A model generated the notes under the pieces. That model saw nothing but the letters and a program-made list of their open reading frames with translations, had not been told where the DNA came from and ran no database searches. From NCBI GenBank assembly GCA_965207065.1, contig OZ242260.1, positions 1,920,001-1,984,000 of the forward strand: DNA of 64,000 nucleotides, written 5' to 3'. How positions within the stretch are numbered: position 1 is the first letter of the stretch; the number at the start of each line of letters is the position of its first letter. The stretch comes from a bacterium (GTDB lineage: Bacteria > UBA8248). A program made the translations under genes and the position numbers. Positions 4,680 to 42,490 of the stretch are shown piece after piece.

Positions 4680-4719
4680 ATACACTCGAATCCAAACGGC
4701 ATATAGCAGAGTTGAACCA

Positions 4720-5275
4720 TGAAAGCCCATACCCGAGACTGCCGCTTATTGCGGCTAAGCCCTGGAGATGAGGATGCCATGACCTGAAACCTCTCGTAGT
4801 GATCCAGCGAGTTCGACTTCCGCCCGGCTAAAACAATAAGCCGAAGGAGAAGCAAGGGCAGGAAGTCGTAGCGCCCTGATAGTACCGCTGAAGGCATGGA
4901 ACCGTGGCCATCGGGAAGGGAAGCGGGGCGTCACCTGTACAGAGCCACTGATGGGAAATGTTGGAGGCAACTCTGAGTTCCACGAACACGTACACGAAAC
5001 AGCAGTGGATAGCCGAACAGGCGAGGGAGCATCAGGAACGGGTGTTCACGTCTCTGCACCACCTCATCGACGGAGAGTGGATGCGCGAAGCGTATCGCCG
5101 CACGCGTAAGGATGGGGCGAGGGGTATCGACGGCGTGAGTGCAGCCGACTACGAGAAGGGCTTGGAGATGAATCTTGACGACCTCCTGAGCCGGATGAAG
5201 CCGGGTCGTTACTTTGCGCCGCCGGTGCGTCGCCACTACATCCCGAAGGCGGACGGCACGAAACGACCGCGCGGA
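4720..5275 (+). mobile_element. Group II intron 5'/central fragment with truncated reverse transcriptase (from 4958)
   Basis: FTSLHHLID...REAYRRTRKDGARGIDGV...PPVRRHYIPKADGTKRP is the RT0-RT1 region; homology stops there with no YADD; upstream non-coding sequence resembles intron DII-DIV. Confidence 0.8.
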
Positions 5276-5472
5276 CGCTTTTCCGTAAAGTCCGTCTCCT
5301 GTTCGCGCCGCTCATTCGCGGTCGGCATCGGCGGGGCGCGCATTTGCTCGCAATATCGGTTGCCGGTTTCTTCGCGGTTCGGTCGAGAATCTCACTCGCG
5401 AAATGCAGTGTTCCGGCGATAGGAGGAGGAAAGAAAATGGAACAGGCGATTGCTAATCACTCGCGTTCGATT

Positions 5473-5522
5473 CCTCCTTCCTCAGTCGGAATCGACCTCC
5501 TTCCTCAGTCGGAATCGACCTC
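5473..5522. repeat. 23-bp tandem repeat (CCTCCTTCCTCAGTCGGAATCGA x2)
   Basis: Read directly. Confidence 0.9.
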
Positions 5523-5765
5523 TCTCCTCAATTCGATTTGCTTAAGCGGAATTTCCGAAAATATCGATTAATTATTGCCATGAACCCGATGACCACGCAA
5601 TGGTACGATTGACTCCGTTTGTCTACGATAACTGATTGTTAATAATACTATATTTCTGTTATTATCCTTCCCGACCCCCCTTGCGCTTTCGTCACACGTA
5701 TGCTCTGATACCCTCCTGTTTGATGCCTATCGTATGCGTTTTGATTACATATTTCAGGAGGCGGG

Positions 5766-6941: not shown

Positions 6942-6942
6942 A

Positions 6943-8154: not shown

Positions 8155-8324
8155 GTGCGAAGGACGGTCCCGGAAGCAGCTGCGCACGCCGATATTGAGC
8201 GATGGCATGAATGTCGCGCCCGAGAGCATGCCGACCCCGACGCCCGCACCCGGATACCACCCCGAAGCCCTTCCCGGCTCAGCCGGGAAAGCAGCACCCC
8301 TCCCGAAGCTGTCCGACGGACCCC

Positions 8325-10799: not shown

Positions 10800-11133
10800 C
10801 GTAATTTCCCTTTCCCGGTAAACGCAAACGAATCGGCGAAATCCAGAGTTGATGATCCTCGATGTTATCCGCATTCTGCGCTTTGTCGCAACGGCCCGGT
10901 AAGTTCACGGGAACGCATCCGCACCATCAGGAACGTGCGATGCCGCAAATCTTGACTCCTGCGGCTGACAGAGCTACTGATTCCACTCAGTTTCGCATTG
11001 GTTCCAGCTTATTGATTCATACTCTTGATTTCTGATCTTTCTGGCATTAAGACTCCAGGGCGGGCGCACGGGTCGTTTCGCTCTCAGGGCCCGCGTTCAA
11101 ACTCTTCCCGGGTCTCCCGCCCACCCCGGGGAG

Positions 11134-11268
11134 ACCTGGGTGACCCCCGGCAGGAAGCCGGGGACGCGCTTAAGGAACGTCGACGGGGCCTGACGTCTCA
11201 TAAGGGAGCGCGCGGGCATTAAGGGCGTGCGGATCCATGATCTGCGCCACTCCCGGGCCTCGCGGGCG
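11134..11268 (+). pseudogene. Integrase fragment related to integrase 2
   Basis: WVTPGRKPGTRLRNVDGA*RLIRERAGIKGVRIHDLRHSRASRA matches 7837-7968 and has an in-frame stop. Confidence 0.8.
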
Positions 11269-13146: not shown

Positions 13147-14516
13147 GTATGTGGACGACCCCGTAAATGCAAGCATGTCAGTTGAACGATTCGGGGTCCG
13201 TGGTCAGGCGCAGTCGTATGTCCGACCTCTTGGTGCGGCATATAACTTGCCGCGGGTCTGTATGGAGATGCGCGGATCGGGTCCTAATCGGCCCATCGAG
13301 CTCAAGAGCTCTCGGCCAGACCCTGGTTTTCCCGATCCTGTCTCATTGACCATTTTCCCTTACCCGTCCTCCGACCTGCTCACATTCCCGGATAATCCAA
13401 TTGTCCGCCGCTCAGGCGACCGGCGCCGGTTCCTGGTAGACTTCTTTCTTCGTCATCAGCGCCCAGGCGATGCGCGCCATTCGATTCGCCAGCGCCACCG
13501 CGACCAGCATCCGTGGCTTGCGCGCCAGCATCCGGGCCAGCCATGAACCCGCCGGCGCACCGCGCCGGACCGCGCTGCGCACCACCGCCATGGCCCCTAT
13601 GATCAACAGCCGTCTGATGTCGCGCTGTCCCATCTTCGACACTTTGCCCAGTCGGGACTTGCCTCCGCTCGAGTGCTGTCTGGGCACGAGGCCGAGCCAG
13701 GCGGAGAAGTCCCGTCCGCGCTTGAAGCTTTCCAAAGGCGGCGCGAAGGCCAGTATCGCCGACGCGGTGATCGGGCCGATTCCCGGGATGCTCATCAGAC
13801 GCCTCGCCTCCGCATCCGCGTAAGCGCCCGCGTGGAGTTGCCTCTCCAACTCCCTGATCTTCTCGTTGAGTTCGGCAATTTGATCGAGCAGAACCCCGCC
13901 CAACTCGCGGACCACCGCCGGCAACTCCGTAACCGGGTCTCCAAGAGCCGCCGCCAGGCGAGAGATATTCACCAGTCCCTGCGGAGCGATGACCCCGAAC
14001 TCCGCGAAGTGACCGCGCAACGCATTGGCAGTCTGCGTGCGCTGGCGAACCAGGAGATCGCGCGTGCGGAACATCATCCCCTGGGCCTGCTGCGCTTCGC
14101 TCTTCACCGCCACGAAGCGCATGGTCGGGCGCGAGGCGGCCTCGCAGATCGCCTCCGCGTCCGCCGCGTCGTTCTTCTGACGCTTGAGGTAAGGCTTCAC
14201 GTAGACCGGTGGCATGAGCTTCACCTCGTGGCCGATCTTGCCGATCTCGCGGCCCCAGTAGTGCGCGCTCGCGCACGCCTCCATCGCAATCAGGCAACGC
14301 GGCTGCGAAGACAGAAAACCCGGTACTTTCCCCCGGCTCAGTTTCTTGCGAAACGCGACCGAACCGTCCGGACGCGCGCCATGGAGCTGAAAACCATGTT
14401 TCGCCAGGTCGATGCCGATGATGTGAACCTGTTCCATGGGATACTCCTTCCAGGCGATTTAGAGACGCTACCTCGCCACAGTGTGATACCTGCCAGGAGG
14501 GGTCGTCCACCCCATC
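13147..14516 (-). mobile_element. IS110-family element, IS1111 subgroup
   Basis: Perfect 12-bp subterminal inverted repeats GTGGACGACCCC (13151-13162) and GGGGTCGTCCAC (14499-14510); ~260-nt non-coding region downstream of the transposase. Confidence 0.88.
13412..14437 (-). CDS. IS110-family transposase (DEDD)
   Basis: IGIDLAK, MEAC, KNDAADAEAI, SIPGIG, WLGLVPRQHSSGGK. Confidence 0.95.
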   Translation of the reverse strand: MEQVHIIGIDLAKHGFQLHGARPDGSVAFRKKLSRGKVPGFLSSQPRCLIAMEACASAHYWGREIGKIGHEVKLMPPVYVKPYLKRQKNDAADAEAICEAASRPTMRFVAVKSEAQQAQGMMFRTRDLLVRQRTQTANALRGHFAEFGVIAPQGLVNISRLAAALGDPVTELPAVVRELGGVLLDQIAELNEKIRELERQLHAGAYADAEARRLMSIPGIGPITASAILAFAPPLESFKRGRDFSAWLGLVPRQHSSGGKSRLGKVSKMGQRDIRRLLIIGAMAVVRSAVRRGAPAGSWLARMLARKPRMLVAVALANRMARIAWALMTKKEVYQEPAPVA

Positions 14517-23173: not shown

Positions 23174-24249
23174 ATGTCGATACGTAAGAGCGTACGCAAT
23201 CTGAGTGATGCCGAGCAAGACGAATTCGTCAGCGCAGTTCTCGCTCTGAAGAACGAAACCAGCACGGTCATGCCGGGTTTCAATACCTACGACACCTACG
23301 TCGCGTGGCACGTGCGTGCAATGGCGAACTCGACGCCGTGGGCGAGTGACGACCCAAACGATCCATCCCCCACCAGTCGCAATTCAGCGCACCGCGGACC
23401 CGCGTTCTTGCCTTGGCATCGTGAGTTCCTGCGTCGGTTCGAGGCCGATCTTCAGCGTATCTCCGGCAATTCGGACTTAGCGATTCCATACTGGGACTGG
23501 GAGAACGACAGCACGTTTCCGGCATTCCTCGGTGGGGACGGAGCTCCGCTATTGGCTCCGATCGGCCAACAAAGCCTCAGAGCCTCGTACTGGTACGGGA
23601 TCAGGAACCCATCCGGTACGTCAGGACGTATTTGATGGCGGTCGCCGAGGGACCGTTTCGGGGATGGCTCGACGATCACGGAAGCCCTCTCGGATGGCTA
23701 GCCGTCGACGGGAACGGAGCGGCGGTTGGTCCGTTGCAACGCGCTTTCGGCACCCAGGAAGTTGCTAGGCGGGATCCGGTCACGCGGCTGCCGGTTCTTG
23801 ACCCTGCAACCGGCCAGGTGGCCATGGGACCCGTCATATTGCCTACGTCCCAGGACGTTCAGCATGCACTTGGAATCGCGGAATACGACGCTCCTCCATG
23901 GGATGAGGACGGAAGGTTAGAGAGCTTCCGCAACGTCTTGGAGGGTTGGTGGCGCGGGCCCCGTTTGCACAACCAAGTCCACGTTTGGGTAGGCGGCTCC
24001 ATGGGTCCCGGTACGTCGCCAAACGATCCAATTTTTTTCTTGCATCATTGCAACGTCGACAGGCTGTGGGCTGAGTGGCAAAGGATGCACCCCTCGGCCG
24101 ACTATCAACCGCAAAGCGGTGGTCCACCGGGGCACAACGTGGAAGACCTGATGTTCCCGTGGGACGGAGTCAAGACGCCCGATACTGTAAGACCGCGGGA
24201 CATGCTTGATCTTGGAGGCGTCGTCTATGAGCCGCCACTAAGCCGGTAG
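23174..24249 (+). pseudogene. Tyrosinase (type-3 copper), frameshifted into CuA and CuB halves
   Basis: AHRGPAFLPWHR and IPYWDW in 23174-23635; LHNQVHVWVGGSM and SPNDPIFFLHHCNVDRLW in 23635-24249. Confidence 0.9.
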
Positions 24250-24386: not shown

Positions 24387-24834
24387 GCGAATGGATGTAA
24401 ACGTTTATCCAAGCCGTGACGAAGTGGGCTTCACCATGGACCGCAAGTGCTTGGATATTTTGCTGAATTAGATGGTGCCGAAAGCATTAGTGCTGACTAG
24501 TTAAGTACGGACTGACTTCGAACTACCGCTGCTGGGGTATTGCTATCACGGCTTAAGTGAACGTTTACGAATGGATACCGACATGAACGCTCTAGGATGC
24601 GCAGAAGTTTGAATTCGCCCGCTTTCGTTTTGTTTACATATATCAGAAACCGAACTCTGTACTAGGTTCCCAAAAACCCAATATCCACAAAAGTTTCAAC
24701 AGACTACAAAGACTTCACCCCCGTTGAAAACCCCCCACTGACTCTAAACGGGCGAAAAATACCTATAGGCCTCAATATTGACCCCATTCAGATTCCTACG
24801 CATCTGCAACGGTGTTTTTCTATTGTCTGGACAT

Positions 24835-25712: not shown

Positions 25713-27098
25713 ATGAACTCCAAAGACCTCTCTGAACTGATTGCGCTTGGCGAAGGTTTCACGACCGAGTTCAAACGCGCCGAGACATCCAGCTTGGGAC
25801 GGGAAATCTGCGCTTTTGCAAATGCCACCGGTGGTGTGATTCTGATCGGTGTAGAAGATAGTGGGGAGATAGTGGGAGTCGCGGACCACAACGGCCTGAA
25901 GTCCAGGGTGCAAGCCACCGCCCGCTCAGCGGATCCACCGGTTGCCATCGACGTGACGTCAGTCGACAGTGTGCTCTGTGTCAGGGTCCCGGAGCAACAT
26001 GGCAAACCCTATTCTTTCGGTGGCAGGTTCTTTATGCGCGAAGGTGCAAACTCTCAACAGATGTCGCGGGAGGAGATTCGCGAGTTCTTCTTCAAGGAAG
26101 GCCTCATCAGATTCGATGAGATGCAGTGTGGTGTTTTCCGCATCGAGAACGATTTGACAGACGAGAAGTGGGCGAAGTTCTCTCAACGTGCGGGAATACC
26201 CGAAGGACTGGAGCCTATTGCGACGCTGGAGAACCTGCATTTGCTGAAAGCCGGAGAGATGACAAACGCCGGGGCATGGGTGCTTGCCGACGACATCACT
26301 CGCTACACCTTACAGGCCAAAGTGATATGTGCAGTCTTTCGAGGAGCAACAAAAACCCACATCCTTGACCGCAGGGAATTCGACGCCGATCTTTTTTCTA
26401 TCTTTGAGGATTGTATGACGTATCTGCAGTCCAGGCTGAACACGGCTTTGATACCCCATGCCCTGGGAAGGGATGAACGTCTGGAGCTTCCCGAAGGCGC
26501 CTTGAGGGAAGCGCTGGTCAACGCCATCGTTCATCGGGATTATCGTTCCACCGCGAACGTACAGGTTCATGTCTTCCGCGACCGTCTGGAGATCGTGACG
26601 CCGGGCGGATTGCCGGCCGGGATGCGTGAAGAGGATCTAGGGACGAAGAGCGTGCCCCGCAACCCACTCCTGTTCGGTATGTTCTACCGCATGGGTCTGG
26701 TCGAGCAGGTCGGTAGCGGCATACGACGCATTCGCGAATTGTGCCGCGACTACGGGGTAACCGAGCCGACAATCAACGTCTCCGAGAATTGGGTGACCAC
26801 TATATTCGTGCGTCAGGTCGAACATGCGGCCTCGCAAGTACCCGACAAGTTCCCTGCAAGTACCCTGCAAGTCAGAAATCTCATCCGTTCTCTGGATGGC
26901 GAACGGACACGAGCAGAAATCCTTCAGAGTCTGGGACTCAAGGATCGGACGAATCTGGCCAAGGAATATATACAACCGGCTCTTGCCGCAGGACTCATCG
27001 AGATGACCATCCCGGACAAGCCCCGAAGCAGCAAACAGAAATATCGATTGACGGACAAGGGACGGGAATTGCAGGAGCACATGAAGCAGACGCGATGA
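25713..27098 (+). CDS. Schlafen AlbA_2 + HATPase_c_4 (RecG C-terminal-like) + HTH protein
   Basis: GEGFTTEFK, AFANATGGVILIGV, REALVNAIVHRDY, PRNP, MTIPDKPRSSKQKYRLT. Confidence 0.9.
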   Translation: MNSKDLSELIALGEGFTTEFKRAETSSLGREICAFANATGGVILIGVEDSGEIVGVADHNGLKSRVQATARSADPPVAIDVTSVDSVLCVRVPEQHGKPYSFGGRFFMREGANSQQMSREEIREFFFKEGLIRFDEMQCGVFRIENDLTDEKWAKFSQRAGIPEGLEPIATLENLHLLKAGEMTNAGAWVLADDITRYTLQAKVICAVFRGATKTHILDRREFDADLFSIFEDCMTYLQSRLNTALIPHALGRDERLELPEGALREALVNAIVHRDYRSTANVQVHVFRDRLEIVTPGGLPAGMREEDLGTKSVPRNPLLFGMFYRMGLVEQVGSGIRRIRELCRDYGVTEPTINVSENWVTTIFVRQVEHAASQVPDKFPASTLQVRNLIRSLDGERTRAEILQSLGLKDRTNLAKEYIQPALAAGLIEMTIPDKPRSSKQKYRLTDKGRELQEHMKQTR

Positions 27099-27950: not shown

Positions 27951-28535
27951 TTAAAACCACGCGTCATTCATCCGCCAGTAGTATTTCGTCCCCTTGAGCG
28001 CGGCGTTCTCTTTTGCGCAATCCCACGGCGTTTTGCCCTCTTTGTCCCCACACGCGCCGTAGCTCAAGCCTTGCGCGTATTCCGTGACTTCGCCACGACT
28101 GAGACTCTCGACCGACCAGCGCCCCGCCTCCTGGTCGGGCGCGGCCAGCGCCACCCGGGCGCCGCAAATCTCCAACACCGTCTCGGCACCATTTCGCCCA
28201 TAAAAATCGCGGAGGGTGGATATCACCTGGATACCCAGCATGTAACACTCCCGAACTGACGCGATTCGGCGAGACCGGGTTGTAAGGTCGGCACCTAGTG
28301 TAGGGTGGGGAGTTCATCCAGCACAATCCATATCCTGCGCCCATCATCCTGACCCAGGGACAAAGCGCGTTCACGGCGATCTCGAACCAGATCGAGATGA
28401 GACCCCGGAGACTCGTATGTTGATCCCCTCGCGATGTCAGGAACTGTAAGCCGGTCTCGTCCTCGCGCTCCACCCACTCCCTTATGGAAAAGGCAACACC
28501 TAAGTCGGGGAGGCACTCGAGCGCGCCCAGGTGCG
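27951..28535 (-). pseudogene. Type IV coupling protein (TraD/TrwB) fragment joined to an ankyrin-protein-like tail
   Basis: FSIREWV, RRIWIVLDELPTLH and LGIQ...YGRNGAET across shifted frames; ends GKTPWDCAKENAALKGTKYYWRMND. Confidence 0.7.
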
Positions 28536-28895
28536 CTGTCAGCATGGGGAACCTGGACACGAACCGGGCTGACCCCCGTCAACACCTTCCGCGACGGCAG
28601 ATAACCGTTGCGTACCACCGCGCGACGTCCCCGCGCGTGACGCTCGGCCGAATGCTCCACGAGGAAGGCCCCCAACTCCACTGCCACCGCCTAGCGGATG
28701 ATTCGTTGCGCGCCCTCGCGCACCAAGTCGCTCAATTCGTCCCGATAGGCTGGATTCGTAATGGGAATCGTTGTATCTTTGTGGATGGTGGCGCATCTTC
28801 TGTGTGCTGCATGACCGGGCTTCTGACAACCCTATTTCAGCAGGAATGTGGCGCCTTCTTCAATTCAGCCCATACACCAGACCTGAGTGTAACTC
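28536..28895 (-). mobile_element. IS256-family left-end fragment
   Basis: GRRAVVRNGYLPSRKVLTGVSPVRVQVP N-terminal motif, then truncated. Confidence 0.7.
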
Positions 28896-28970
28896 GGTTA
28901 ATCGAGAATCCACCCAGAAGATTCATCATTTTTCCGAGTGCAAATTATGTGGTCCGAAGGAAGAAACCCA

Positions 28971-29339
28971 ATGAAGACTATCCTCAGCGCGCTCGCATTG
29001 TGTGGGATGATGGTGCTTACGGCTGAAACGATAAGTGCTCAATCGTTCCGAGGACCTGCAAATGCAGACAAAGATAGTTGCTACAACACTATTGGCAAAT
29101 GCATATTTGCAAAATCAAAAACTAAGTCAAATGGGCAGGTTCTGCTAAAGATCACAAACAATTGCCGTGGCCGTGTATACATAAAATATCCGACTGGAAC
29201 GATCCACCAGATTTTGATTAATGGCCGGCGGCCGGGGTCCGGCTCTACGGCGGGCGCGCTCGAAAGGGAGGATAACCATGAAGTCTTCGATACTTGTGAT
29301 CTTCTTTTGCGTCATATGCATCTCGGCGATGCAGATTAG
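28971..29339 (+). CDS. Small secreted Cys-containing protein, probably truncated or chimeric
   Basis: MKTILSALALCGMMVLTA signal-like N-terminus. Confidence 0.4.
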   Translation: MKTILSALALCGMMVLTAETISAQSFRGPANADKDSCYNTIGKCIFAKSKTKSNGQVLLKITNNCRGRVYIKYPTGTIHQILINGRRPGSGSTAGALEREDNHEVFDTCDLLLRHMHLGDAD

Positions 29340-29586
29340 TGATGCACGAGCGAATGAAGATCACGACGCAGCAATGAACTCCGGAATTGCGGCTGGAGCG
29401 ACCGCCGGCGCTGCGTTGGGTACTGGAATCGGGTTCTTAGCAGGACCGTTAGGAGCAGTGGTAGGGGGAATTATAGGGGCAGGAGCGGGAGCTATTTTGG
29501 CTATTGAGGGGAATCGCAGGTATGGAAGATCGATCAAGAAGAGGCGGCTCAGGCAACATCTCTGTCCAACTCCAAATCCCTGCTAA
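29278..29586 (+). CDS. Secreted glycine-zipper peptide
   Basis: GGAGG RBS; signal peptide ending ARA; GAALGTGIGFLAGPLGAVVGGIIGAGAG; cationic tail. Confidence 0.65.
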   Translation: MKSSILVIFFCVICISAMQISDARANEDHDAAMNSGIAAGATAGAALGTGIGFLAGPLGAVVGGIIGAGAGAILAIEGNRRYGRSIKKRRLRQHLCPTPNPC

Positions 29587-30116
29587 TTTCGCGACACTTT
29601 CCTACATAAATCCCCTTGTTTGGGGAATTATATACGAAAGTACCGAAAGGAGATGGGTTCAAACAACTTTTAGTGGTAAATATTTCAATCCGTCGTAATA
29701 TCAATATTCGTGATTATAATAAGGCCATTATTTTCAAGGAACTTTAATATTTCTACTTCCTGGTCAGACACACTGATCATTCCTTCTAGATTCGACTCAT
29801 CAATTGATTCTTTCGTCATGGACTTTTCGTTTTGCACCGAGACTTTATTCGCTACGCCGAACAACATAAAAAAGAACATGGAGGCGATAAAAGGCCGACA
29901 TCAAGAAACTATGGCGGCGCTGCTGGCTCGGCGCGATGCGCGAATCGAACAGCACCGGGAAACGATAAAGATGATGGAACACCGACATCAGTAATCGATG
30001 AAGGCGCTCGAAGGTCAAAACAACGCGATGATGAAATTCATCCGGCGTACGTCGGCGTAGTCTGCGCGAGGGGATGGGTGAGGGGGGGGGGAGAAACCCT
30101 TTCACACAAGTTTTTT

Positions 30117-31553
30117 TCAATTCCCTATAGTCAACCCCACGAGTCCATATGTTTGGATTCTGCCAGTGTCGTGGCAATAGTAGGCTTGAAACAATTCGAA
30201 GTCACTCCGGTGGTTCTCATCGCATTTCTTGGAGATTATCTCGATAATTTTCAGCTTTTCGCTATCCGGCGTGCGGATTCCAAAAATAATACCCTTCAAT
30301 AAACTGAAATCGTAAGTCAGGGCACGAGAATTCTTGTCGAGATCACCTGACAAGCCATGTAGTACCAAGCGAGTTTCTTTCTCGTATTTCCAGTCGAGAG
30401 TTTTTATGGATAAAGCCGGGTAAAAACGATCCCAGTAGGCCTGTCTCCAGGCCTCGGTATCGATTCCAAAGTGAGATGCGCATTCACTCAAGTTTCCATC
30501 CTCATCGCTGTACCAGATTTCTATAAGCTTTATCTCAGGAAACATACCAAGGGAGCGAAAAAAATCGATTTCACCGGCTTTCTCTCCATATTTCACGTCG
30601 TGAAATTCCATCCGGCGAGGTCCCCATGTTTTCCCATGATTCGAATAACCCGTAACTTTGTTCAATGTCAGGCTGTTTACTCCATCTTGTGTATCCGATT
30701 CAAAAATCAAGCATACTCCTTTGTGGCCATCGCCATAATTCGCCCACATCGAAGCATTACCATAGTCTCTAGTAAAACAAGCGGCATACCAGCTTGGATA
30801 AAGCACTCGTTCAAGTTGTTGCAAATATGATTTTGGGAAATCAAAAATCAAAAATGTTAGATTACTTTCAAGATTGCTGCCAGGATTTTCCCTGCGCAGA
30901 TATTTATACTTGAGATGTATATCTTGCCACGTGCTTGAACCAATTCTCATCATATAATCAACAAATCCTTCTTCTTCGAATTGTGGCAACAGATCGAGAA
31001 TCTTGTGAAAATGTTCGAAGCTATCTGGGAACTTGCTCCATATCTCGTTACTAGATTCCAATTCGTAATCGACATATGTGTCTTGAATTTCCCTTAATGC
31101 AAGGTGGTGCAATCCCTGAAGATAAAAAAGAATCTCGTCGTGGCGGACTATTCGTTCTGCATTTACGAGTTTTTCAATAAATTTATGCAGTTTCGCTTTG
31201 TCGAATACTCTTCCATAGATATCCTCTATCAATCCACGTAACCGAGGTGCCGGGTCTTGGTCTTGGTCCGACATGACAGGAATGAGCTGAGGCCCAATTC
31301 GTTGACTGTCTCCAAGAAAACGCACAATCACGCACGTCATGTGTAAACAATAAAGGTAGTGGCGAAAAAAATTAGCCCAGACGATGTGATCACCTTTCCA
31401 AAAAATGTCTCGGAATCCTTCCATCGGGTCGTTGAGTTCTTGCGAATTGGCAAAGTAAATTGTCTGTCTCTCAAGCTCTTCGCAATCTGCACATTCTTTG
31501 AGCAATCTTTCTGTAGTCCTGAATCTGTACAATTCCGTCATTGTCAGTCTCAT
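30117..31553 (-). CDS. DUF2971 domain protein
   Basis: ELNDPMEG, MWANYGDGHKGVCLIF, KTLDWKYEKETR; low GC. Confidence 0.85.
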   Translation of the reverse strand: MRLTMTELYRFRTTERLLKECADCEELERQTIYFANSQELNDPMEGFRDIFWKGDHIVWANFFRHYLYCLHMTCVIVRFLGDSQRIGPQLIPVMSDQDQDPAPRLRGLIEDIYGRVFDKAKLHKFIEKLVNAERIVRHDEILFYLQGLHHLALREIQDTYVDYELESSNEIWSKFPDSFEHFHKILDLLPQFEEEGFVDYMMRIGSSTWQDIHLKYKYLRRENPGSNLESNLTFLIFDFPKSYLQQLERVLYPSWYAACFTRDYGNASMWANYGDGHKGVCLIFESDTQDGVNSLTLNKVTGYSNHGKTWGPRRMEFHDVKYGEKAGEIDFFRSLGMFPEIKLIEIWYSDEDGNLSECASHFGIDTEAWRQAYWDRFYPALSIKTLDWKYEKETRLVLHGLSGDLDKNSRALTYDFSLLKGIIFGIRTPDSEKLKIIEIISKKCDENHRSDFELFQAYYCHDTGRIQTYGLVGLTIGN

Positions 31554-31569
31554 CTCCTGTAGTTTCCTG

Positions 31570-31792
31570 CTACTTCCTCCGTCGTTTCCCCTTACCCCTC
31601 ACCCGCACATTAAGCGGGGTGAACATTTTCTCATGCAGGGCGAAGAGGCTCTATACGCGCTCGCGCCCGGAGGCGAAGCCAGTGCGGAGGCAGAGGCGAT
31701 CTACAGCGCGCTCCAGCACCTTATGAGCGCGACGCTGATCGGGCGGTATGAGGTTCAGGTCGTAGAGGTTGGCCAGTGTCGCTTCGGGATGC
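31570..31792 (-). repeat. Decayed copy C of the MmeI-like gene 3' end
   Basis: HPEATLANLYDLNLIPPDQRRAHKVLERAVDRL...GFASGRERV*SLFALHEKMFTPL. Confidence 0.9.
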
Positions 31793-31880
31793 CCCAGACC
31801 GCGATGTCCGGCGAGACCCTGCTCTTGGTCGGACGGTTACTTGGTCCCAAGCGGTACAGAACTAGGGCGATGTAAGCCCT
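31793..31880 (+). pseudogene. Tyrosine integrase C-terminal fragment fused to copy C
   Basis: QTAMSGETLLLVGRLLGPKRYRTRAM*. Confidence 0.7.
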
Positions 31881-31961
31881 ATCATCGTTCGGGATAAGAG
31901 ATACATCGGCCAAAAACGACGAACACTATAGCTATGAGATCGCCATTCTGCTTCGTTTTCC

Positions 31962-33095
31962 TCAAACAGTGTTCCGTTGTCTTCGCCAATCATCAAACTC
32001 TAATAGATTACGAAGAAATAGTTCGTATTGCTCATCCTCGTCCTGGCTCGGCTCAACAGGCCCGAAATCATTTTGCCGGCCAAGAAACTCGTCTAACTCC
32101 TCCTTTGAAACAACCGGAATCTTTACATGGCGTCCCCACTGCGACCGCGCTTCCATGTAACTCTCGCTATTTACCTGAATAGAAAGCGTTGTTGAATGAT
32201 CTTCTTGAACATGAGCGGCATACCACTTCTGTAAGGCGTAACCTATGCTATCCACCTCGTAATAGTAAAAGCGGCCTGCGCCGCGCGCCTTCCACTCCGG
32301 AGCCACCATTGATTTTCTGTCGTCATCAAAACTCACGTATCGTACGCGAGCCAAGCAGGTTTGATGATATCGGATTTCGTAATATCCCGCATGATTATTA
32401 TCTCTGCGAATCTCTCCGCGCGTCCACTCCTCATTACGCGCCATGAACTCTTCCGCCTCAGTAACTGCTAAAGTGAATTCGGGGAATATCTTATGGTGCT
32501 TGAACGGATTTACTCCTACCCTGTTACTCGGCACCCATGAATCAGTTTCGTTTAGGTAGAGCTTAATTCTGTCAAGTGGAGAGATATCCAGTCCGAATCG
32601 CTCCCGCCACATTCGTTCAATTTCATGAGGCTGTGCAGCATCCGTTGCTGGAGTGTTGGTATCGCAGACGCGTGTGTAAATATGATGCGCACAAAGTTTC
32701 TCATACCTTTCGACAAGGTAATATGGTTTGTGTGGTGTATCCTCAATTATCAACACATCCAGCAATGTTCCGTCTATTGTTATTTCCATCAGATGAAAGT
32801 CCGGAAATCTCGACTGAAAAAATTTGCTCGCGTTGTCGCGAAAAAGACCTGCAATATTGGCTTGCGTCCTCCGTCCGGGGTCATTGCTTATCGTGTGTAG
32901 GGAGAAATTCAAATCGTCAACTCCAAAAATCAGGAACCGACTACCTTTGTGTTTGGCATTGGCAAGGCATAGAATATCATGAATTAGATCCGCCTTGTTT
33001 GTGTGATGGCAGCTCTTGAAGTCCCAGTATGTCCCTTCAGAGCGACGAACAATGAGCGCCCTAATGTCTGCTAGTAGAGTATCGTTCCTGGTCAT
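31962..33095 (-). CDS. Schlafen AlbA_2 domain protein
   Basis: EGTYWDFK, DLIHDILCLANA, LIFGVDD, KPYYL, IYTRVCDTNTP. Confidence 0.88.
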   Translation of the reverse strand: MTRNDTLLADIRALIVRRSEGTYWDFKSCHHTNKADLIHDILCLANAKHKGSRFLIFGVDDLNFSLHTISNDPGRRTQANIAGLFRDNASKFFQSRFPDFHLMEITIDGTLLDVLIIEDTPHKPYYLVERYEKLCAHHIYTRVCDTNTPATDAAQPHEIERMWRERFGLDISPLDRIKLYLNETDSWVPSNRVGVNPFKHHKIFPEFTLAVTEAEEFMARNEEWTRGEIRRDNNHAGYYEIRYHQTCLARVRYVSFDDDRKSMVAPEWKARGAGRFYYYEVDSIGYALQKWYAAHVQEDHSTTLSIQVNSESYMEARSQWGRHVKIPVVSKEELDEFLGRQNDFGPVEPSQDEDEQYELFLRNLLEFDDWRRQRNTV

Positions 33096-33343
33096 ATGCC
33101 TCTCTTCCGAGTTTGTGAATTTCTTCTTGTCCTCCGTCTTAGTTTTTTCTTCACCCTCGCTTCAAACGGTGTGCGCATTTTCTCGTATAGGGCGTTGATG
33201 TGCTCAACGCGCTTGCGCTCAGAGGCGATGCCGCTTCGGCGATAGAGTTTGTCCACGGTGCGGTCAAGAGTATGATGGGCCCGGCGCAGATCGGGTGGCA
33301 TGCAGTACAGCTCGTAGAGGCGGTCAAAGTTGCGTCTGGGTGC
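33092..33343 (-). repeat. Decayed copy B of the MmeI-like gene 3' end
   Basis: MPPDLRRAHHTLDRTVDKLYRRSGIASERKRVEHINALYEKMRTPF; its stop overlaps the AlbA_2 start (ATGA). Confidence 0.92.
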
Positions 33344-33480
33344 GCCAGACCGTGATGTCAGGTGAAAACCTGCCCTTGTTTGGAAGGTTACTCGGAGATA
33401 AGCGGCATAGAACCACGGCGGGGTATGTCCAACTCGTCGACTCGCACCTTGCCGAAACCGCAGAGAAGGTGCGGGCGTTA
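33344..33480 (+). pseudogene. Tyrosine integrase C-terminal fragment fused to copy B
   Basis: QTVMSGENLPLFGRLLGDKRHRTTAGYVQLVDSHLAETAEKV covers the catalytic Tyr region. Confidence 0.8.
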
Positions 33481-34335
33481 TCAACGAGACGATAAATTCT
33501 GAGCGGAATATTCCCCAATTGTCGCTCGCAAAGCACTCATAAACTCGCTGGCAACATTACAGTGATTTATGAGAGAAAAATCTTTCGACCTATTAGCTGG
33601 CAAATTAGCCAAAGTCCATTTTCTCAACAAACCTGAGCCGTGCGCTTCCGGTGTCCTAATGTCATCCACCATCCCGATCACATCACCCATTATTTTCAAA
33701 AATGGGTCTGGAAACGGGATAATTAAATTGCGATTGTCAATTTCTTTAGCCGCTTCCCTTTTTTCTGAATGGATAAGCCAAGTCCTAACGATATTCGTTA
33801 GACACTTTCGGAAATGCAACGAAATTTCAGGCCAGTCTCGGGCGTGCTTGAAAAAGTAAGACTTTCTGCTTTTTGCCTTGACAAATTTCTCATACCTTCG
33901 ACATTCGTAAAGCAGAAATAATACTCCCATGTATTTATCCCAAAATGCACGAATTCGGAACGACAAAGCCGATAAAGCATATAGAATATCCGTTTTCCCA
34001 GAGAATAGCTCGAAATCTTGGAGCACTGCCCCTGACGCAATCCGTCCTCTACTGTGCAGTTGATTATATATGCCGCCAGCTAAATTCACATCTTTCATCA
34101 TGAACAGGTAGGTCAACTCAAGATCGACACAGGCATTCAACAGCTTGCCGTTGATGCGATCATCGTCGCAGTGTATGCGGGAGTACTTGTAGACGTTGCG
34201 AATGTCGTCGCATAGGTTATATCCAGTAATAGTCGCCCCTCCGTATCGGCTAATACATGTCGCAAAGTCTTCTGCATCTTGAAGAGAAGTAATACGGAAT
34301 GGTTCTGGCTCTTGAAACACACCTTCTCCGATCAT
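33481..34335 (-). CDS. Hypothetical protein, possibly HEPN-like
   Basis: Low GC; RTPEAH fits RxxxxH; helical composition. Confidence 0.65.
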   Translation of the reverse strand: MIGEGVFQEPEPFRITSLQDAEDFATCISRYGGATITGYNLCDDIRNVYKYSRIHCDDDRINGKLLNACVDLELTYLFMMKDVNLAGGIYNQLHSRGRIASGAVLQDFELFSGKTDILYALSALSFRIRAFWDKYMGVLFLLYECRRYEKFVKAKSRKSYFFKHARDWPEISLHFRKCLTNIVRTWLIHSEKREAAKEIDNRNLIIPFPDPFLKIMGDVIGMVDDIRTPEAHGSGLLRKWTLANLPANRSKDFSLINHCNVASEFMSALRATIGEYSAQNLSSR

Positions 34336-34369
34336 GAGCGTATCGTCCTAGAAGTTGGCTTGCTTCTAG

Positions 34370-34540
34370 TCAGACGTACCGCTTTTTCCTCACTCCGGTT
34401 CCCAGCGACGTGTACATCTTCTCATAGGACGCGAACAAATGCTCCACGCGCTCGCGTTGGGAGGCTATACCGCCCTAGAAGTAAAGCGCGTCCACGGCGC
34501 GATCGAGGAACTTGTGGGCTGTGAGCTTTTCAGCCGGAGG
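34370..34540 (-). repeat. Decayed copy A of the MmeI-like gene 3' end
   Basis: AHKFLDRAVDALYF*GGIASQRERVEHLFASYEKMYTSL. Confidence 0.88.
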
Positions 34541-34544
34541 CGAT

Positions 34545-35574
34545 CTATGCAACTCTGAACAGCTTATAAATTTCCTGCCTCAATTTATCATCGCAATCAA
34601 ATTCCACCGACTTCAAAGATATCATGTAATCTACCTGTTCTTTGCTGCGAAACGGTTTGCGGCGTATTTCACGGACTTCTTCGGCGCTAAAGTACCGATG
34701 GAGGTAATCATACGGATTTTTCCCCTGCCCTATTTGCTTAACAAGAAAGTTGACCCATTGCGCAGTACCCGTGCGTCTCTTCAAATCTTCGATTTCAAAA
34801 AAATCTCTCTCCGCGGCTGTTACGTTTCGGGCAAATAGGTTCTCGATTTTTTCATATAAATCTTTCAAAACTTTGAAATGTTCCCCCTACAACTATAGGC
34901 AAATCTATACTTTCCCCCATCGAACGCTCGATATAAGCCTTCGATACGCTATTCCATCTCCCAAATTTCAGGTTTTCTTTGCCAATCTTCAAAGTGCCAG
35001 CCGTCATCCCGCCTCTCCATGATATTTGCCATTCCGGAACGAAGACAACCCCATGAGATAAATTATTTCTCAACTCCCTTATGAATACGGCAACATCACA
35101 ACCAAAACTTTCTGTTTTGATTTCCTCAATGCTGGCTCTCACATCATCAGGGCACTCTCGCTGAATATTATCAAGAGTCTGTTGCAGGCCAACCACCAAA
35201 GCGCAATACGCCATCATGTCCTTTTGCGCTGCGTGCCCAACGACATGGGCTACATGCGTTTCGAAATTAGTGTCCTTCGAAAAGGCTCCAAGGGCCGCAG
35301 CATGACGGGAAATATCAATATATGCTTGGTGAGCTTCCGAGTATTGCGCTTTCAAACCTTCCTTCAATCTATTCTTTTTCCAGTAGATATGATGGCGGAT
35401 CACGCTCGTTCGCTCTGGACCTATACGCTGGTTTATGGTGTTCCGAATTTCGTCACAGGTTGGGATATCGCCACGTTTCAGATATGAAATAACTTTGCGA
35501 TTTTCAACATCTTTTCGTTGGCGTTCCATCTCTGAAGATCTCTTGAAAAGCTCCCAATTATCCGGTTCTTTCAT
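34545..35574 (-). pseudogene. HEPN-like protein, probably frameshifted (ORFs 34852-35574 and 34545-34868)
   Basis: ELRNNLSHG fits RxxxxH; two overlapping same-strand ORFs; low GC. Confidence 0.55.
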
Positions 35575-35618
35575 TATTACCTCACAATATCGTCGTCATG
35601 GATAATCAAGTTTTATTA

Positions 35619-38405
35619 TCACCCCCGCCTCCGCCGTCTCGGTTTTTTCTTCGCCCTCACTTCCAGCGGCGTGCGCATTTTCTCGTACAGGGCGAAGAGG
35701 TGCTCCACGCGCTCGCGTTCGGAGGCGAATCCGCCCCGGCGGTAGAGACGATCCACGGCGCGGTCGAGTGCCTGGTGGGCCCGGCGCAGATTGGGCGGCA
35801 TGAAGTCGGGGTCGTAGAGGTCGGCCAGCGTCGCTTCGGGGTGCGTCGCGCGCGCGTCCAGAACGGCCTGCGCGAGTGGATCCAGCTTCGAGAGGTCGGC
35901 GTCTCCTGGCGGCGTGGGGAAGGTGTTGTAGATGACACCGATTCCGTACTGGAAATCGCTCTTTAACCGCCCCCCAATGTGTCTGACCCATGCCATGTGC
36001 ATTGCAGAGGTCAGGAGTGCGAACTCCTGTAAATCAGCATTTGGTAAGACTCTTACTTTGTTGCTTGGAATCACAGGCGGTTCAAGCCAAGCAATAGGTA
36101 TATAATCTCTTCTTTCGGAGCTTACTTCGGGGATAACGAGAAACGGCGCAGTTGGGATAACCTCAACATTGTACCGCGCCGGGTAGTCAGCAACCTTAAG
36201 TGTGCTCTTCCGTTTGCTCTTCGCCCTGAAACTTTTGACAGCGCGCATTCGTTCTACAACTTTTGGCATGGCCTTGAGATCCGCTGGGCCGGCTTCTTGA
36301 AGAGCAAGAATCCAGCGTTCACCGCCTTGCAGATATTCGCGCGCGCCGACATACGGATGCATGAACTTATCTGCAGCCAGTTCTTCCGCGAGTAAGGCCG
36401 CGCGTTGGTCAGCACTGAAAATGTAATTCCCGTTGTCGATAGGTTGTGAGCCGCTCAATAGTGGAAGTAGGCCGTTAATTGGCCGACTCTCCTCCCGCAC
36501 CGTCAGATGCGGATCGGCGAGGCCGCCCGCGTCGAACAGGTAAGGCGAGAGGGCGGTGTGGCGGCTTTCCTCCGGTTCGCCGTTTATATCGGGATAGCTG
36601 AACAGGCGTTTTTCCGCCCGCGCCGCCTCCCGGGGGTCCAGGCCGATAATAACAACGTGCACGTGCGCCTTCCCGCGCGCGTCCGACCCCCATGCGAAGG
36701 TGCGGTGGGCGAAGGCAATCTCCAGCCTGCACCGCTCGAAGAGCAGAGGCCAAAGCTGCGCCGCCTGCTCACCCTGCGTAATCGAGTTGGTGGCGACGAA
36801 GCCGACCCGCGTCGCGCTCTTTTGGAGATACTCCCCCGCCCGGATGAACCACGCGGTCACGTAGTCGAGCGTTCCGCCGCTCTTGCCGAGATCGGCGATG
36901 CGGCGCACCTGCAAGCGCTGCTCGGCCGTCTGGAACTTGGCGCCCACGAATGGCGGATTGCCGAAAACATAGGAGCAATCCTCGGGCGGTAGAAGCGCCG
37001 CCCAGTCGGTCTCCAGCGCGTCGGCGCACAATATGTGCGGGGAAGTCGTAATGGGAATGCGGGTGTAGGTCTGGCCGAACTCCAGGCTCAGGCGGTTGTT
37101 CATGATGTGGTCCATCATCCAGAGCGCCGTCTCGGCGATGCGCGCCGGAAACTCGCCGAGTTCGATGCCGTAGAACTGATCCACGGTGATTTTCGAAAGC
37201 TCGGCCACGTCGAGTTCTTGCTGCGCCTCGTCGGCGCGCAGTTCGCGGATGACCTCCATCTCCAGTTCGCGCAACTCGCGATACGCGATGATGAGGAAGT
37301 TCCCGCATCCACAGGCCGGGTCGAAGAAATTCATCTCGCCGAGACGTCGCTGGAACGCTTCGAGTTCGGCGCGGCGGCGGCTGTCCCGGCGGGCTTTGAG
37401 CCGCCCAAACTCCTCGCGCAGATCGTCCAGGAAAAGCGGCTCGATGACTTTCAGGATGTTCTTCTCGGTGGTGTAGTGCGCCCCCTGCGCGCGGCGCTCT
37501 GCGGGATTCATGACCGATTGGAACAGCGCGCCGAAGATGGCGGGCGAGATGTTCGACCAGTCGAAGCGGCAGCATTCGAGCAGGGCGTTCCGCATGGCGG
37601 CGTTGAAGGAGGGAATGCGCAGGGAATCCTTGAACAAATCGCCGTTCACGTAAGGGAAGCGGGCGAGGTCCACATCCAGCGTGCTCTGGCGGCCGTTCTC
37701 CGGCGTGTCCAGCGCCTGAAACAGTTCGGCCAGCTTCGCCCCGGAGTCCGAGCCGTCCTCGCTCGTGCGCTCTTCGATGAAATCATAGAAAATATCGCGC
37801 GGCTCGAAGATGCCCGTGTCGTCCGCGAAGAGGCAGAAGACGACGCGCACCAGAAAGCGCTCGAGATCGTGCCCCTCGTAGCCCGCCTCCGCTAGGGCGT
37901 CGTGCAGGTTGCCCGCGAGTTCGGCGGCCTTGATGTTGGCGGGGTCCTGATCGCGGAACTCGCGGCGTTGCACGCCGAGAATGAAACCGAATTTCTCGAT
38001 ATTGGCGGGCAAATCGGCGAGGGTGAAGGAGGTGTGCGTATCCTCGTCCAGATTGCGTAGTTCAAATGTCTGGAAATCGCTCACGAGGATGTGTCCGGGC
38101 CGTTCTCTTTCGGGGAGGGCGTCGAAGTATTCCCCCGCCTGCCCGTAGGCTCGCTCCAGATCGCGGCCCTCGCTTTTCTGTTCGACCAGCAGGACGCGCG
38201 GCCAGAAGAGATCGATGTAGCCATGGCGGTTGTCGAGCAGTTCCACGCGCTCTTCATAGCGGGCGACGGAGCGGCGCTGGACGCCGAAGATATGGAAGAA
38301 ATCGTTATAATAACTCTGCGTCTCGCCCTTCTCGTACGCGGCGCCCGCCCAAGCGCGGGCGAAACTCGCCGCGCGCACGCGTATCTCGTTCCAGGATAGG
38401 CGCAA
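35619..38405 (-). CDS. MmeI-family type IIL restriction-modification enzyme (fused REase-N6A MTase-TRD)
   Basis: YIDLFWPRVLLVEQKS nuclease motif, GAHYT, FFDPACGCGNF (motif I), GNPPF (motif IV), TLADLYDPDFMP C-terminus; 928 aa. Confidence 0.93.
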   Translation of the reverse strand: MRLSWNEIRVRAASFARAWAGAAYEKGETQSYYNDFFHIFGVQRRSVARYEERVELLDNRHGYIDLFWPRVLLVEQKSEGRDLERAYGQAGEYFDALPERERPGHILVSDFQTFELRNLDEDTHTSFTLADLPANIEKFGFILGVQRREFRDQDPANIKAAELAGNLHDALAEAGYEGHDLERFLVRVVFCLFADDTGIFEPRDIFYDFIEERTSEDGSDSGAKLAELFQALDTPENGRQSTLDVDLARFPYVNGDLFKDSLRIPSFNAAMRNALLECCRFDWSNISPAIFGALFQSVMNPAERRAQGAHYTTEKNILKVIEPLFLDDLREEFGRLKARRDSRRRAELEAFQRRLGEMNFFDPACGCGNFLIIAYRELRELEMEVIRELRADEAQQELDVAELSKITVDQFYGIELGEFPARIAETALWMMDHIMNNRLSLEFGQTYTRIPITTSPHILCADALETDWAALLPPEDCSYVFGNPPFVGAKFQTAEQRLQVRRIADLGKSGGTLDYVTAWFIRAGEYLQKSATRVGFVATNSITQGEQAAQLWPLLFERCRLEIAFAHRTFAWGSDARGKAHVHVVIIGLDPREAARAEKRLFSYPDINGEPEESRHTALSPYLFDAGGLADPHLTVREESRPINGLLPLLSGSQPIDNGNYIFSADQRAALLAEELAADKFMHPYVGAREYLQGGERWILALQEAGPADLKAMPKVVERMRAVKSFRAKSKRKSTLKVADYPARYNVEVIPTAPFLVIPEVSSERRDYIPIAWLEPPVIPSNKVRVLPNADLQEFALLTSAMHMAWVRHIGGRLKSDFQYGIGVIYNTFPTPPGDADLSKLDPLAQAVLDARATHPEATLADLYDPDFMPPNLRRAHQALDRAVDRLYRRGGFASERERVEHLFALYEKMRTPLEVRAKKKPRRRRRG

Positions 38406-41522: not shown

Positions 41523-41985
41523 CTACAGCTCTTCCGACTCGAAATAGTCTTCGTCTATCCGCTTTAACTCGTAAATGATTCGCGTACGCACGCCGATCCC
41601 ATACCGGACCATGAGGCGCGCCAACTCCTCACCGTCGACCAGAGCAATCCGCTTAAGGCTCAGAGCCACGTAATTTTTCGCGGCTTGCGTGAATCCGTAG
41701 GTGGTGACGAACACCCCCTTGGTCGTGCCCGCCGCGTCGATTGCGCCGGCGAAGTTGCGTAAATCGCCTTTTCCCACGGTGTTGCTGTCAGCATATTTCT
41801 TCGCCTTCAAGTAGACTTCATCCAGCCCGAGCGTGTCCTCCCGGATCTTGCCGTCGATTCCACTATCGCCTGAACGTCCAGTCACACGGCCCATCGCAAT
41901 CAGCAAGTCAACGACTACACGTTCAAGAAACGCCGGTGCGGCTGTGGTTCTGGGCATCTGCGGATCAGGATCGACAAAGTCCTTG
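41523..41985 (-). pseudogene. mrr: Mrr type IV restriction endonuclease, truncated
   Basis: GRSGDSGIDGKIREDTLGLDEVYLKAKKY, KGVFVTT, LVDGEELARLM, KRIDEDYF; N-terminus missing. Confidence 0.85.
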
Positions 41986-41999
41986 AGCGAACCTGTCAG

Positions 42000-42078
42000 A
42001 TGAAGAACCGAGTGCGTCAATCGCGCACGCTCGGGTCTGTGGGGGGCGGGGCGCAGAAATGCTCCCGCCTACCCGGCC
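42000..42078 (+). ncRNA. Group II intron 3' end (domains V-VI), isolated fragment
   Basis: GAACCGAGTGCGTCAATCGCGCACGCTCGGGTCTGTGGGGGG DV hairpin with AC bulge, then DVI ending CCTACCCGGC. Confidence 0.8.
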
Positions 42079-42490
42079 CAATGGTTGTAACGGTTCGGCG
42101 GAGGGGTGATAACTTAGTCGATGCCGGAGACATTTGTAGGAATTTCGCGGTGTAGCCAGCTTCAGCTGGTGCTTTCCTGTTCCTCATCACCCCGCGACCG
42201 AACGAATACTACACCGGCGTTCGACAGTATCCCGCCAGGGTGCGCTGGGGTTATAATGAATCCGCTTTCGTTTTGATTACATTTATTATAATGAATTTGT
42301 AACTAGCTTATAAACAATAACTTAATTTTTATATTCTGGATATATCGATAAAATACGATAAATTCGCGGTGTTTTTCGGTAAATAAACGAAAAGAGAAAA
42401 GAGAGAGGGTGAATCTACATAACTCTAATTTTTACAATAAGTTGATAGAAATGATGTTCGCCGGGCACGGCTTTTTCCACGATATGGATC

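Follow-up and report, generated by a model that had tools for sequence, protein, structure and literature searches.

In this work, we analyzed a 64,000-nt stretch of bacterial DNA (positions 1,920,001 to 1,984,000 of contig OZ242260.1, assembly GCA_965207065.1; hereafter the window, to which all coordinates refer unless another locus is named) from a genome of 4.48 Mb with a guanine-plus-cytosine (GC) content of 0.595, here called G000, and specifically an array of genes and gene ends that trails a restriction-modification (R-M) gene of the MmeI family. The R-M gene is intact, lies on the minus strand at 35619..38405 and encodes a type IIL enzyme of 928 amino acids (aa) that was recognized by both Pfam and PADLOC. 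All five Pfam MmeI domains were found between residues 11 and 912 (E-values: N-terminal domain 3.2e-36, helicase spacer 3.9e-26, methyltransferase (MTase) 3.9e-85, target recognition domain (TRD) 2.4e-62, C-terminal domain 7.6e-27), and the PADLOC model REase_MTase_IIG aligned over positions 2-912 of its 912 with E=0 and 1150 bits. The single chain carries the nuclease, the helicase-like spacer, the gamma-class N6-adenine MTase, the TRD and the C-terminal domain by which MmeI-family type IIL (IIG) enzymes are recognized. The full-length gene is present once in the genome and has a GC content of 0.61.

Downstream of this gene and on the same strand, a whole-genome translated search revealed three decayed copies of its last 50-80 codons, and a repeat finder agreed. 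Copy A (34382..34537, minus strand) corresponds to residues ~870-921 and carries one TAG (E 1.1e-13, 62% aa identity); it begins immediately past the stop of the gene that follows the intact MmeI gene, with no integrase remnant. Copy B (~33095..33344, minus strand) corresponds to residues ~849-928 and is frameshifted by a 1-nt deletion (translated match 33125-33358, E 2.7e-25, 62% aa identity), and copy C (31573..31794, minus strand) covers residues ~855-928 with in-frame stop(s), including one TAG (translated match over the same positions, E 9.6e-26, 65% aa identity). At the DNA level, 105/141, 171/216 and 163/217 positions of A, B and C, respectively, are identical to the intact end (74-79%). 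The recurrence of the MmeI 3' end and the separate decay of its copies, by stops in A and C and by a frameshift in B, had been proposed in an earlier note on this DNA; both were borne out, with its coordinates within ~15 nt of ours. Compared with all intact MmeI tails of the genus, the three displaced (orphan) ends are 73-79% identical, while intact tails are 86-89% identical among themselves; A, B and C are thus roughly equidistant from every intact tail, which fits old decaying scars.

Each of the four ends, intact or displaced, is followed by a different co-oriented gene of low GC content, as the earlier note had also described. The next start codon comes 44, 34, -4 and 16 nt after the real or pseudo stop, and the GC contents of these four cargo genes are 0.44, 0.43, 0.47 and 0.42, against 0.61 for the MmeI gene and 0.595 for the genome. 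All four are encoded on the strand of the MmeI gene. Cargo 3 (31962..33095, minus strand, 377 aa) is a Schlafen AlbA_2 protein (PF04326, 8.9e-10; PADLOC PDC-S50, 8.2e-77) and cargo 4 (30117..31553, minus strand, 478 aa) a DUF2971 protein (PF11185, 4.3e-08; PADLOC PDC-S31, 1.9e-18) whose true start may be the second ATG, four codons in; both identities agree with those first suggested. By their PADLOC matches, at least two of the cargo genes are candidate defence genes. None of the 60 relatives searched carries a homologue of the DUF2971 gene. Among the same relatives, a homologue of the Schlafen gene was found only at locus L131 (G022:C1:502000-516000; 63% identical, one stop), where it lies behind Vsr and Dcm-like genes without an MmeI remnant; the conserved segment that follows it there also trails orphan ends in the genomes G008 and G006.

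The two cargo genes nearest to the R-M gene had been described as encoding a HEPN-like protein and a second RxxxxH protein, which stood in part. Cargo 1 (34545..35574, minus strand) is the locus of an Rx4H ('HEPN-like') protein gene whose reading frame is interrupted in G000 by one additional G within a G-run near 34887 (five G, where the sister genome G013 has four), leaving the frames 34852-35574 and 34545-34868; in G013 it is a single 347-aa frame, 84-86% identical in aa sequence. The gene is hence present as proposed, but not as an intact frame. The contig of the public sequencing run X1 shares the five-G run at ~34887. This G-run could reflect simple decay or a slippage-prone on/off point. 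Cargo 2 (33481..34335, minus strand, 284 aa) is intact and encodes the second Rx4H protein; it is broken by a stop in G013, where cargo 1 is whole. The cargo 1 family comprises 73 clusters, none of them named, with the motif LRNNLxHG; across 33 of its sequences H174 is invariant and R169 conserved in at least 90%. The cargo 2 family comprises 93 clusters, all unnamed or 'hypothetical', and R227, T228, E230, A231 and H232 are invariant across 27 sequences. A conserved Rx4-6H motif, a criterion for HEPN proteins, is thus present in both families, but neither protein was matched by a PADLOC or NCBIfam model, by Pfam even at E<=5, or by a PDB sequence below E 0.09. For cargo 2 only, the Atlas gave a weak lead to HEPN_Cthe2314 (19% of one cluster's members). 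A common family for both proteins was considered and rejected, as their profiles are unrelated (hhalign probability 0.3). A cargo 2 homologue lies directly behind an intact MmeI gene, with an ATGA overlap, at the Bryobacterales locus L056; a sample of 401 genomes from the phylum to which G066 belongs contained no relative of cargo 2.

Two of the displaced ends are joined to pieces of tyrosine integrase genes. Abutting copy B, on the plus strand and convergent with cargo 2, are the last 49 codons of an integrase (33345..33492; box II region, LLG..TTAGY), and a second, more decayed 3' remnant of ~25 codons abuts copy C (31795..31869, plus strand). Integrase remnants are part of the units of cargo 2 and cargo 3; in that of cargo 1, mobility genes are absent. 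The remnant at 33345-33492 is 62-71% identical in aa sequence to the C-termini of full-length integrases at seven loci of other taxa (L043, L047, L056, L059, L072, L075 and L091), and its position is where, in these complete relatives, a full integrase follows the cargo with its 3' end abutting the cargo stop. The joint between remnant and MmeI end falls at exactly the same base in copies B and C and in the G013 counterpart of B. Joints share only 1-4 nt of microhomology and no common core; at the B/C joint, the intact MmeI site has only 1-2 nt in common with the intact integrase gene. Orphan ends differ in their 5' limits, which range from residue ~820 to 899. The B/C joint motif, GACATCRCGGTCTGGNGCAYCC, was considered as a recurrent site and discarded: its 9 matches in metagenome contigs all lie in unrelated genes, without an MmeI or integrase match.

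We compared the array with 22 other genomes of the genus. MmeI orthologues (71-88% aa identity) are present in 10 of them, each with a different low-GC gene behind its stop. The sister genome G013 shares half of the array with G000, namely the MmeI gene, cargo 1, copy A, cargo 2, the integrase remnant and copy B, at 85-95% identity from ~100 nt upstream of the MmeI gene into copy B, the TRD excepted. The TRD is ~50% identical between the two genomes and the rest of the gene 85-90% (window 36000-37000 against locus L027); this difference is an allelic swap, which by sequence comparison has probably changed the recognition site. Copy B is 91% identical to its G013 counterpart up to a breakpoint in its last third, where homology stops, and the sequences are unrelated beyond: the Schlafen gene follows in G000, an unrelated 279-aa gene in G013. 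The hybrid tail of G013 resembles the MmeI end of G008 that precedes the same cargo family. A breakpoint within copy B means that a crossover inside a dead MmeI end changed the gene that follows. The earlier expectation of variable cargo behind a conserved end was thereby supported.

Contigs of four public runs (X1, X3, X4 and X8) were also compared with the window. That of X1, which may be the source sample of the window, matches 28819-36516 with 0 differences and 0 gaps. Contigs of X4 and X8, which bear other host labels, contain the stretch of the array with the Schlafen gene, copy C and the DUF2971 gene at ~90-92% identity, and one X4 contig begins inside copy B. Neither run covers 33614-35618 (cargo 1, copy A and cargo 2), and X3 does not cover 30406-31608, missing cover not being proof of absence in any of them; the cover of X4 and X8 is compatible with a shorter array and does not prove it. 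An X1 and an X4 contig join 30087 to 35625 with 5 letters between, both sides being of low complexity and the X1 flank depth revealing no second allele; this joint could be an array-less form. Relatives with fewer units are represented by G013 and, as far as their cover goes, the X4 contigs, with no clean empty site among them.

Displaced MmeI ends are not confined to the window. Three more were found elsewhere in G000 (genome positions 4118587-4118709, 2833350-2833421 and 1163138-1163188). The first lies behind a 327-aa gene at a locus syntenic to the MmeI locus of G008, G022 and G004; the orphans at this syntenic locus begin at residues 884 (G008), 847 (G006) and ~877 (G000), and the upstream genes differ in each. 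The third is followed by a 353-aa cargo gene whose family also occurs behind intact MmeI genes at L072, L077 and L092, in three further lineages of phylum level. G018 has an orphan end (L036) that keeps its own 263-aa cargo behind a 1394-aa Eco57I-like type IIG gene (6490-10865 of that locus) ending 15 nt before it, so that the upstream R-M gene has been replaced by another family. In G044, one MmeI gene is split at residue 814 over two distant places (L032 and L034), the same 378-aa open reading frame (ORF), transposase-like in appearance, standing at both breaks; L034 holds two more MmeI ends and one cargo.

The position behind the MmeI stop was then considered beyond the genus. One genome per species was queried with an alignment of the MmeI C-terminus, and at least 478 relatives were confirmed by tblastn among at least 601 pattern matches listed. 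The loci examined across phyla were the best 80 of these at least 478 relatives (tail 66-89% aa identity), from Alpha- and Gammaproteobacteria, Acidobacteriota, Nitrospirales, Chloroflexota, Binatia, Cyanobacteria, Thermodesulfobacteriota, Bacteroidota and others. In a census of 110 MmeI ends, an ORF was counted as cargo if it was co-oriented, encoded 90 aa or more and began between -45 and +130 nt. By this definition, 65 ends had a cargo ORF behind the stop, and these fell into ~50 blastp clusters. The cargo start overlaps the MmeI stop as ATGA in 18 of the 65 and lies within 10 nt in 32, and in 42/65 the cargo is at least 5 GC points below its MmeI gene. Most slot genes have no assigned family, and those that can be named have a defence character; the domains recognized included HEPN_LA2681, Schlafen, OLD-TOPRIM, DUF4238, NERD, Vsr and AAA_16 among co-oriented genes, and SIR2, ApeA-HEPN, DAC cyclase and TIR-like among genes on the opposite strand. 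This slot is hypervariable across many phyla. A ribosome-binding site within the MmeI tail does not hold as a general rule: a Shine-Dalgarno (SD)-like motif was found in the 15 nt before 23/64 cargo starts (10% in random 15-mers), and just 12 lie inside the coding tail.

At seven of the best 80 loci, those with the full-length integrases mentioned above, and at L129 in G013, a pair of convergent, full-length P4-like integrase genes (intA and intB) comes after the cargo. These loci have higB-higA upstream of the MmeI gene in common, and their homology is lost just beyond intB; the shared higBA, integrase pair and homology limits indicate that the unit is a small element, higBA-MmeI-variable gene-intA-intB. 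The MmeI clade spreads between phyla, often on this element. No convincing direct repeats were found as element ends in L043, L047, L072 and L075, nor any orphan tail beyond intB in these four loci or in L091. L091 (6537-20188) has a tandem of two integrase-pair elements whose left ends are repeats of each other (6537-6808 and 13821-14098); higBA, MmeI and cargo are on the first and an RTX-repeat protein is on the second. In L079, two MmeI genes lie ~6 kb apart, each with cargo. The integrase pair does not qualify as a 'bipartite module' (BIM), since a BIM is described in the available text of PMC3414803 as one recombinase and an unrelated protein.

Taken together, these results point towards an array that was probably, though by no means certainly, formed by serial displacement, through homologous and illegitimate recombination together with the trimming of integrase-borne MmeI elements. 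Each decayed end and the gene behind it would be the leftover of an earlier junction between an MmeI gene and its accessory gene, pushed downstream by incoming upstream DNA that carried an MmeI gene and an accessory gene of its own. Whole elements or MmeI-cargo segments would first land beside the resident one; illegitimate joining at 1-4 nt of microhomology, together with deletions, would then trim away the rest, sparing the cargo, the end of the MmeI gene and in some cases the 3' end of the integrase gene; and homologous recombination between the repeated MmeI ends, and between integrase remnants, would duplicate, delete and reshuffle units. No dedicated cassette recombinase would be required, and the position behind the stop would act as a hot spot for the exchange of accessory, largely defence-type genes. 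As to function, MmeI would restrict unmodified DNA and the cargo genes would supply separate second-line effectors, possibly read from the MmeI promoter.

In favor of serial displacement are the three diverged copies with a cargo gene each, the integrase remnants in the place of a full integrase, the tandem arrangements of L091 and L079, the breakpoint in copy B, the microhomology at the joints, the age of the orphans, the differing orphan starts at the syntenic locus of G008, G006 and G000, and the diversity of the slot. Direct repeats well over 30 bp and copied from the target flank the inserts of the array (141-217 nt at 74-79% identity), and others were found at L109 (133 nt, 96%) and in G008 (115 nt, 89%). 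The repeat of L109 (128/133 identical) consists of the last 107 nt of MmeI and 23 nt past it, and flanks an insert of 4.2 kb whose only gene is an antisense SIR2 gene, without a second MmeI; by its sequence, this insertion appears recent. The earlier note had proposed that units of MmeI 3' end and cargo move in and restore the R-M gene, which our data do not support: across 68 full-length genes, residues 853-915, the tail, vary with the body of the gene (r = 0.70) and not with the cargo, and for the 11 pairs with the same cargo the residual z ranges from -1.4 to +1.5. A 120-nt alignment had favored tails travelling with cargo (same-family mean 0.54 vs 0.44); it was confounded by kinship and misalignment, and the better test gave no signal. 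The analogy with an integron as the mechanism was likewise unsupported. There is no IntI-type integrase by the array, and the full integrases of the window (5766-8154, 22 kb away) score 44-47 bits against the cut-off of 265 bits of the NCBIfam integron-integrase model. No attC-like hairpins were found, as local inverted repeats are absent and the fold z values at the four ends are -1.14, +0.16, -1.41 and +0.35; one of two bottom strands folded reaches z -2.66. Nor did the array joints show a fixed att core on both sides of every unit; the 5' limits of orphans vary, and Rfam returned only one match, far under threshold (E 0.86). Of the proposed displacement of older units downstream, what stands is that the copies are displaced MmeI ends tied to cargo; the integron-like machinery does not.

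Several observations weigh against serial displacement. First, the identical B/C joint cannot be explained by independent deletions, and the reading would need one joint followed by duplication of the unit and replacement of its cargo. Second, orphans with three different upstream partners, namely the integrase remnant, a piece in L035 that we take to be an IS3-like orfA, and a higA flank in L127, all start, give or take a few bases, at the same His-Pro codons (~residue 849-855), which lie just 3' of a CG-repeat; this recurrent limit hints at a preferred site and keeps a site-preferring process alive as a rival. Third, stacking is not general, since only 3 loci have an extra MmeI end among the best 80 of other phyla. 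In addition, among the ~22 orphan ends tallied, ~11 are followed by a co-oriented cargo gene and one more by a cargo fragment, but ~10 are not. Besides, promoter and terminator scans of the array gave results at chance (10 vs 9.0 +/- 2.8 expected, and 11 vs 11.6 +/- 3.7), and that its cargo is co-transcribed from the MmeI promoter is something we purely infer.

Site-specific capture, which puts the model of the earlier note in concrete form, we regard as unlikely but worth retaining. According to this explanation, a small element consisting of the MmeI tail from ~codon 850, the cargo, intA and intB integrates by means of its own tyrosine integrases at a site in the MmeI gene, supplies a new tail and displaces the old tail with its cargo, analogous to phage 21 and e14, which integrate at icd, and to islands at tRNA genes. 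The single joint shared by B, C and the G013 copy fits it, as do the several orphans with other upstream partners that begin at the same His-Pro codons, the integrase genes that adjoin cargo in 8 loci, the near-perfect repeat around the single-gene insert of L109, and the integrase genes of G006 that lie ~1.2 kb upstream of the orphan starting at residue 847. However, the intact integrase region and the intact MmeI site have no common core beyond the 1-2 nt at the B/C joint, and other orphans start at residues 870, 870, 884, 893, 894, 899, <=820 and 825. Furthermore, no orphan tail lies past intB in L043, L047, L072, L075 and L091, tails follow the gene body rather than the cargo, the joint motif does not recur with MmeI elsewhere (9/9 metagenome matches unrelated), and the integrases at the array are remnants only.

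Since the MmeI gene keeps 70-90% DNA identity across phyla, it is tempting to speculate that it serves as a docking platform, giving any MmeI-linked DNA a homology anchor, with a His-Pro crossover point used by integrases and a reservoir of serially captured defence genes; as a whole, we consider this a doubtful proposition. Under it, the His-Pro codons (~residue 850) may be a preferred break or crossover point used by the paired integrases of the element, and captured genes would be read from the MmeI promoter and re-dealt by recombination between tails. Such a 'defence stacker', integron-like but built from the end of a protein gene, may be widespread in host-associated marine bacteria.

Pure accretion and decay, by which complete MmeI elements were integrated in tandem at another attachment site and then suffered random deletions, seems to us rather improbable. 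The MmeI ends would here be recombination-inert, surviving beside selected cargo, and may hold expression signals. The tandem elements of L091 and tandem MmeI genes of L079, the integrase remnants at the expected place, the age and decay of the orphans and the excess of SD-like motifs before cargo starts (23/64 against 10% in random 15-mers) are all in its favor. The identity of the B and C joints, the G000/G013 recombination breakpoint within copy B and the 96% identical repeat around a single gene in L109, with no second MmeI, speak against it.

That the cargo genes are functionally coupled to the enzyme, as 'guardians' that MmeI silences and that are released when a phage inhibits it, by analogy with PrrC in EcoprrI, is an improbable explanation in our judgment, although a guardian role would explain why cargo is welded to the MmeI stop codon. 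The concept is described in the accessible part of a review (PMC12707154), and the ATGA overlaps (18/65), the starts within 10 nt (32/65) and the presence of the cargo 2 family behind MmeI in two phyla would suit it. Against it, ~50 unrelated families occupy the slot, some on the opposite strand, the Schlafen homologue of G022 lies behind Vsr and Dcm-like genes without any MmeI remnant, and cargo persists behind dead gene ends. Finally, an assembly artefact of a repeat-rich region, conceivable for a metagenome-type genome in a single contig and named earlier as a possible refutation, is so improbable as to be set aside: the copies are only 63-80% alike and too diverged for collapse or misjoining, G013 carries the same first half of the array, and the X1 contig crosses 28819-36516 without a difference, so that, on these comparisons, the structure of the array is real.

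The remainder of the window contains other features of note. Two TonB-dependent receptor genes of 849 aa each (2024-4573 and 8325-10874), 96% identical in aa sequence, belong to a tandem duplication of ~6.3 kb within 2015-11267 and flank a tandem pair of P4-like integrases (5766-6941 and 6943-8154); a third integrase fragment lies at 11124-11267. A tyrosinase gene (23174-24249, plus strand) is split into the frames 23174-23635 and 23632-24249. At 25713-27098 (plus strand), there is a second, unrelated Schlafen AlbA_2 protein gene with HATPase_c_4 and Fic-like C domains and weak PADLOC matches to Argonaute-associated models. The remnant of a TrwB-type coupling protein (27964-28560, minus strand) has an inverted counterpart in a 694-aa ORF that lies beyond the array in G013, on its downstream side (L027 17398-19482), which places the array in a decayed conjugative element. 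A 70-nt direct repeat (24579-24648 and 42222-42291, 71% identical) flanks 17.6 kb with the array, the MmeI gene and a Mrr_cat gene (41523-42020), and its two copies may be the ends of an island.

The array can be compared with several known systems. Like integron arrays, the one described here consists of co-oriented, mostly single-gene foreign units behind a fixed point, with contents that vary among relatives; unlike them, its unit borders are pieces of a protein gene, and it has neither IntI nor attC-like hairpins. Other elements enter a gene at its 3' end and provide a replacement for that end, as islands do at tRNA and tmRNA genes and phage 21 and e14 at icd. With these, the array shares a displaced target end that marks the far side of the insert and tandem accretion; associated tyrosine integrases are present in the array as remnants and in full length in 8 related loci. 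In contrast, it has no fixed att core, its limits vary, and nothing indicates a tail supplied by the incoming unit. In rhs and cdiA orphan modules, the displaced piece encodes a variable toxin tip and its partner is an immunity gene. There too a full gene is followed by displaced 3' pieces with partner genes, reshuffled by homologous recombination with the conserved part, but here the piece is the conserved MmeI_C domain, dead through stops or a frameshift, and its partner gene stands alone and is unrelated to it.

Among published concepts, the nearest to the array is that of insertion with long target duplication at R-M genes or around them (Furuta, Abe & Kobayashi 2010, PMC2853133), which the accessible text of that article places mostly in competent species and traces to an original Helicobacter pylori report (its ref. 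37). As in that account, the array shows target-derived flanking repeats of variable length well over 30 bp. An insert free of mobility genes, as described there, is seen in the cargo 1 unit, those of cargo 2 and cargo 3 having integrase remnants. The TRD swap between G000 and G013 resembles the allelic TRD substitution that the same article describes in a type IIG gene. As far as the article's accessible text goes, however, the R-M system is the insert there, whereas here the target, duplicated several times, is the R-M 3' end, other defence-type genes are inserted behind it, the events are serial (three scars), and two of the scars carry integrase remnants. Effector genes embedded in R-M operons, such as PrrC in EcoprrI, are likewise covered in the part of the review PMC12707154 available to us; the array resembles that case in having an accessory effector gene welded to an R-M gene, and differs in that its slot takes many unrelated families and no functional dependence is in evidence. 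In the literature searched, mostly at the level of listings and abstracts, there was no account of arrays in which displaced ends of MmeI or type IIL genes come with cargo.

If serial displacement holds, displaced gene ends are the footprint of defence genes joining restriction genes and piling up into islands, a footprint that can be searched for from sequence alone. The recurrent His-Pro codon limit could reveal a site-preferring step. The slot behind the MmeI clade would then be a place to seek new defence genes, with its ~50 mostly unnamed families, including the two Rx4H families.

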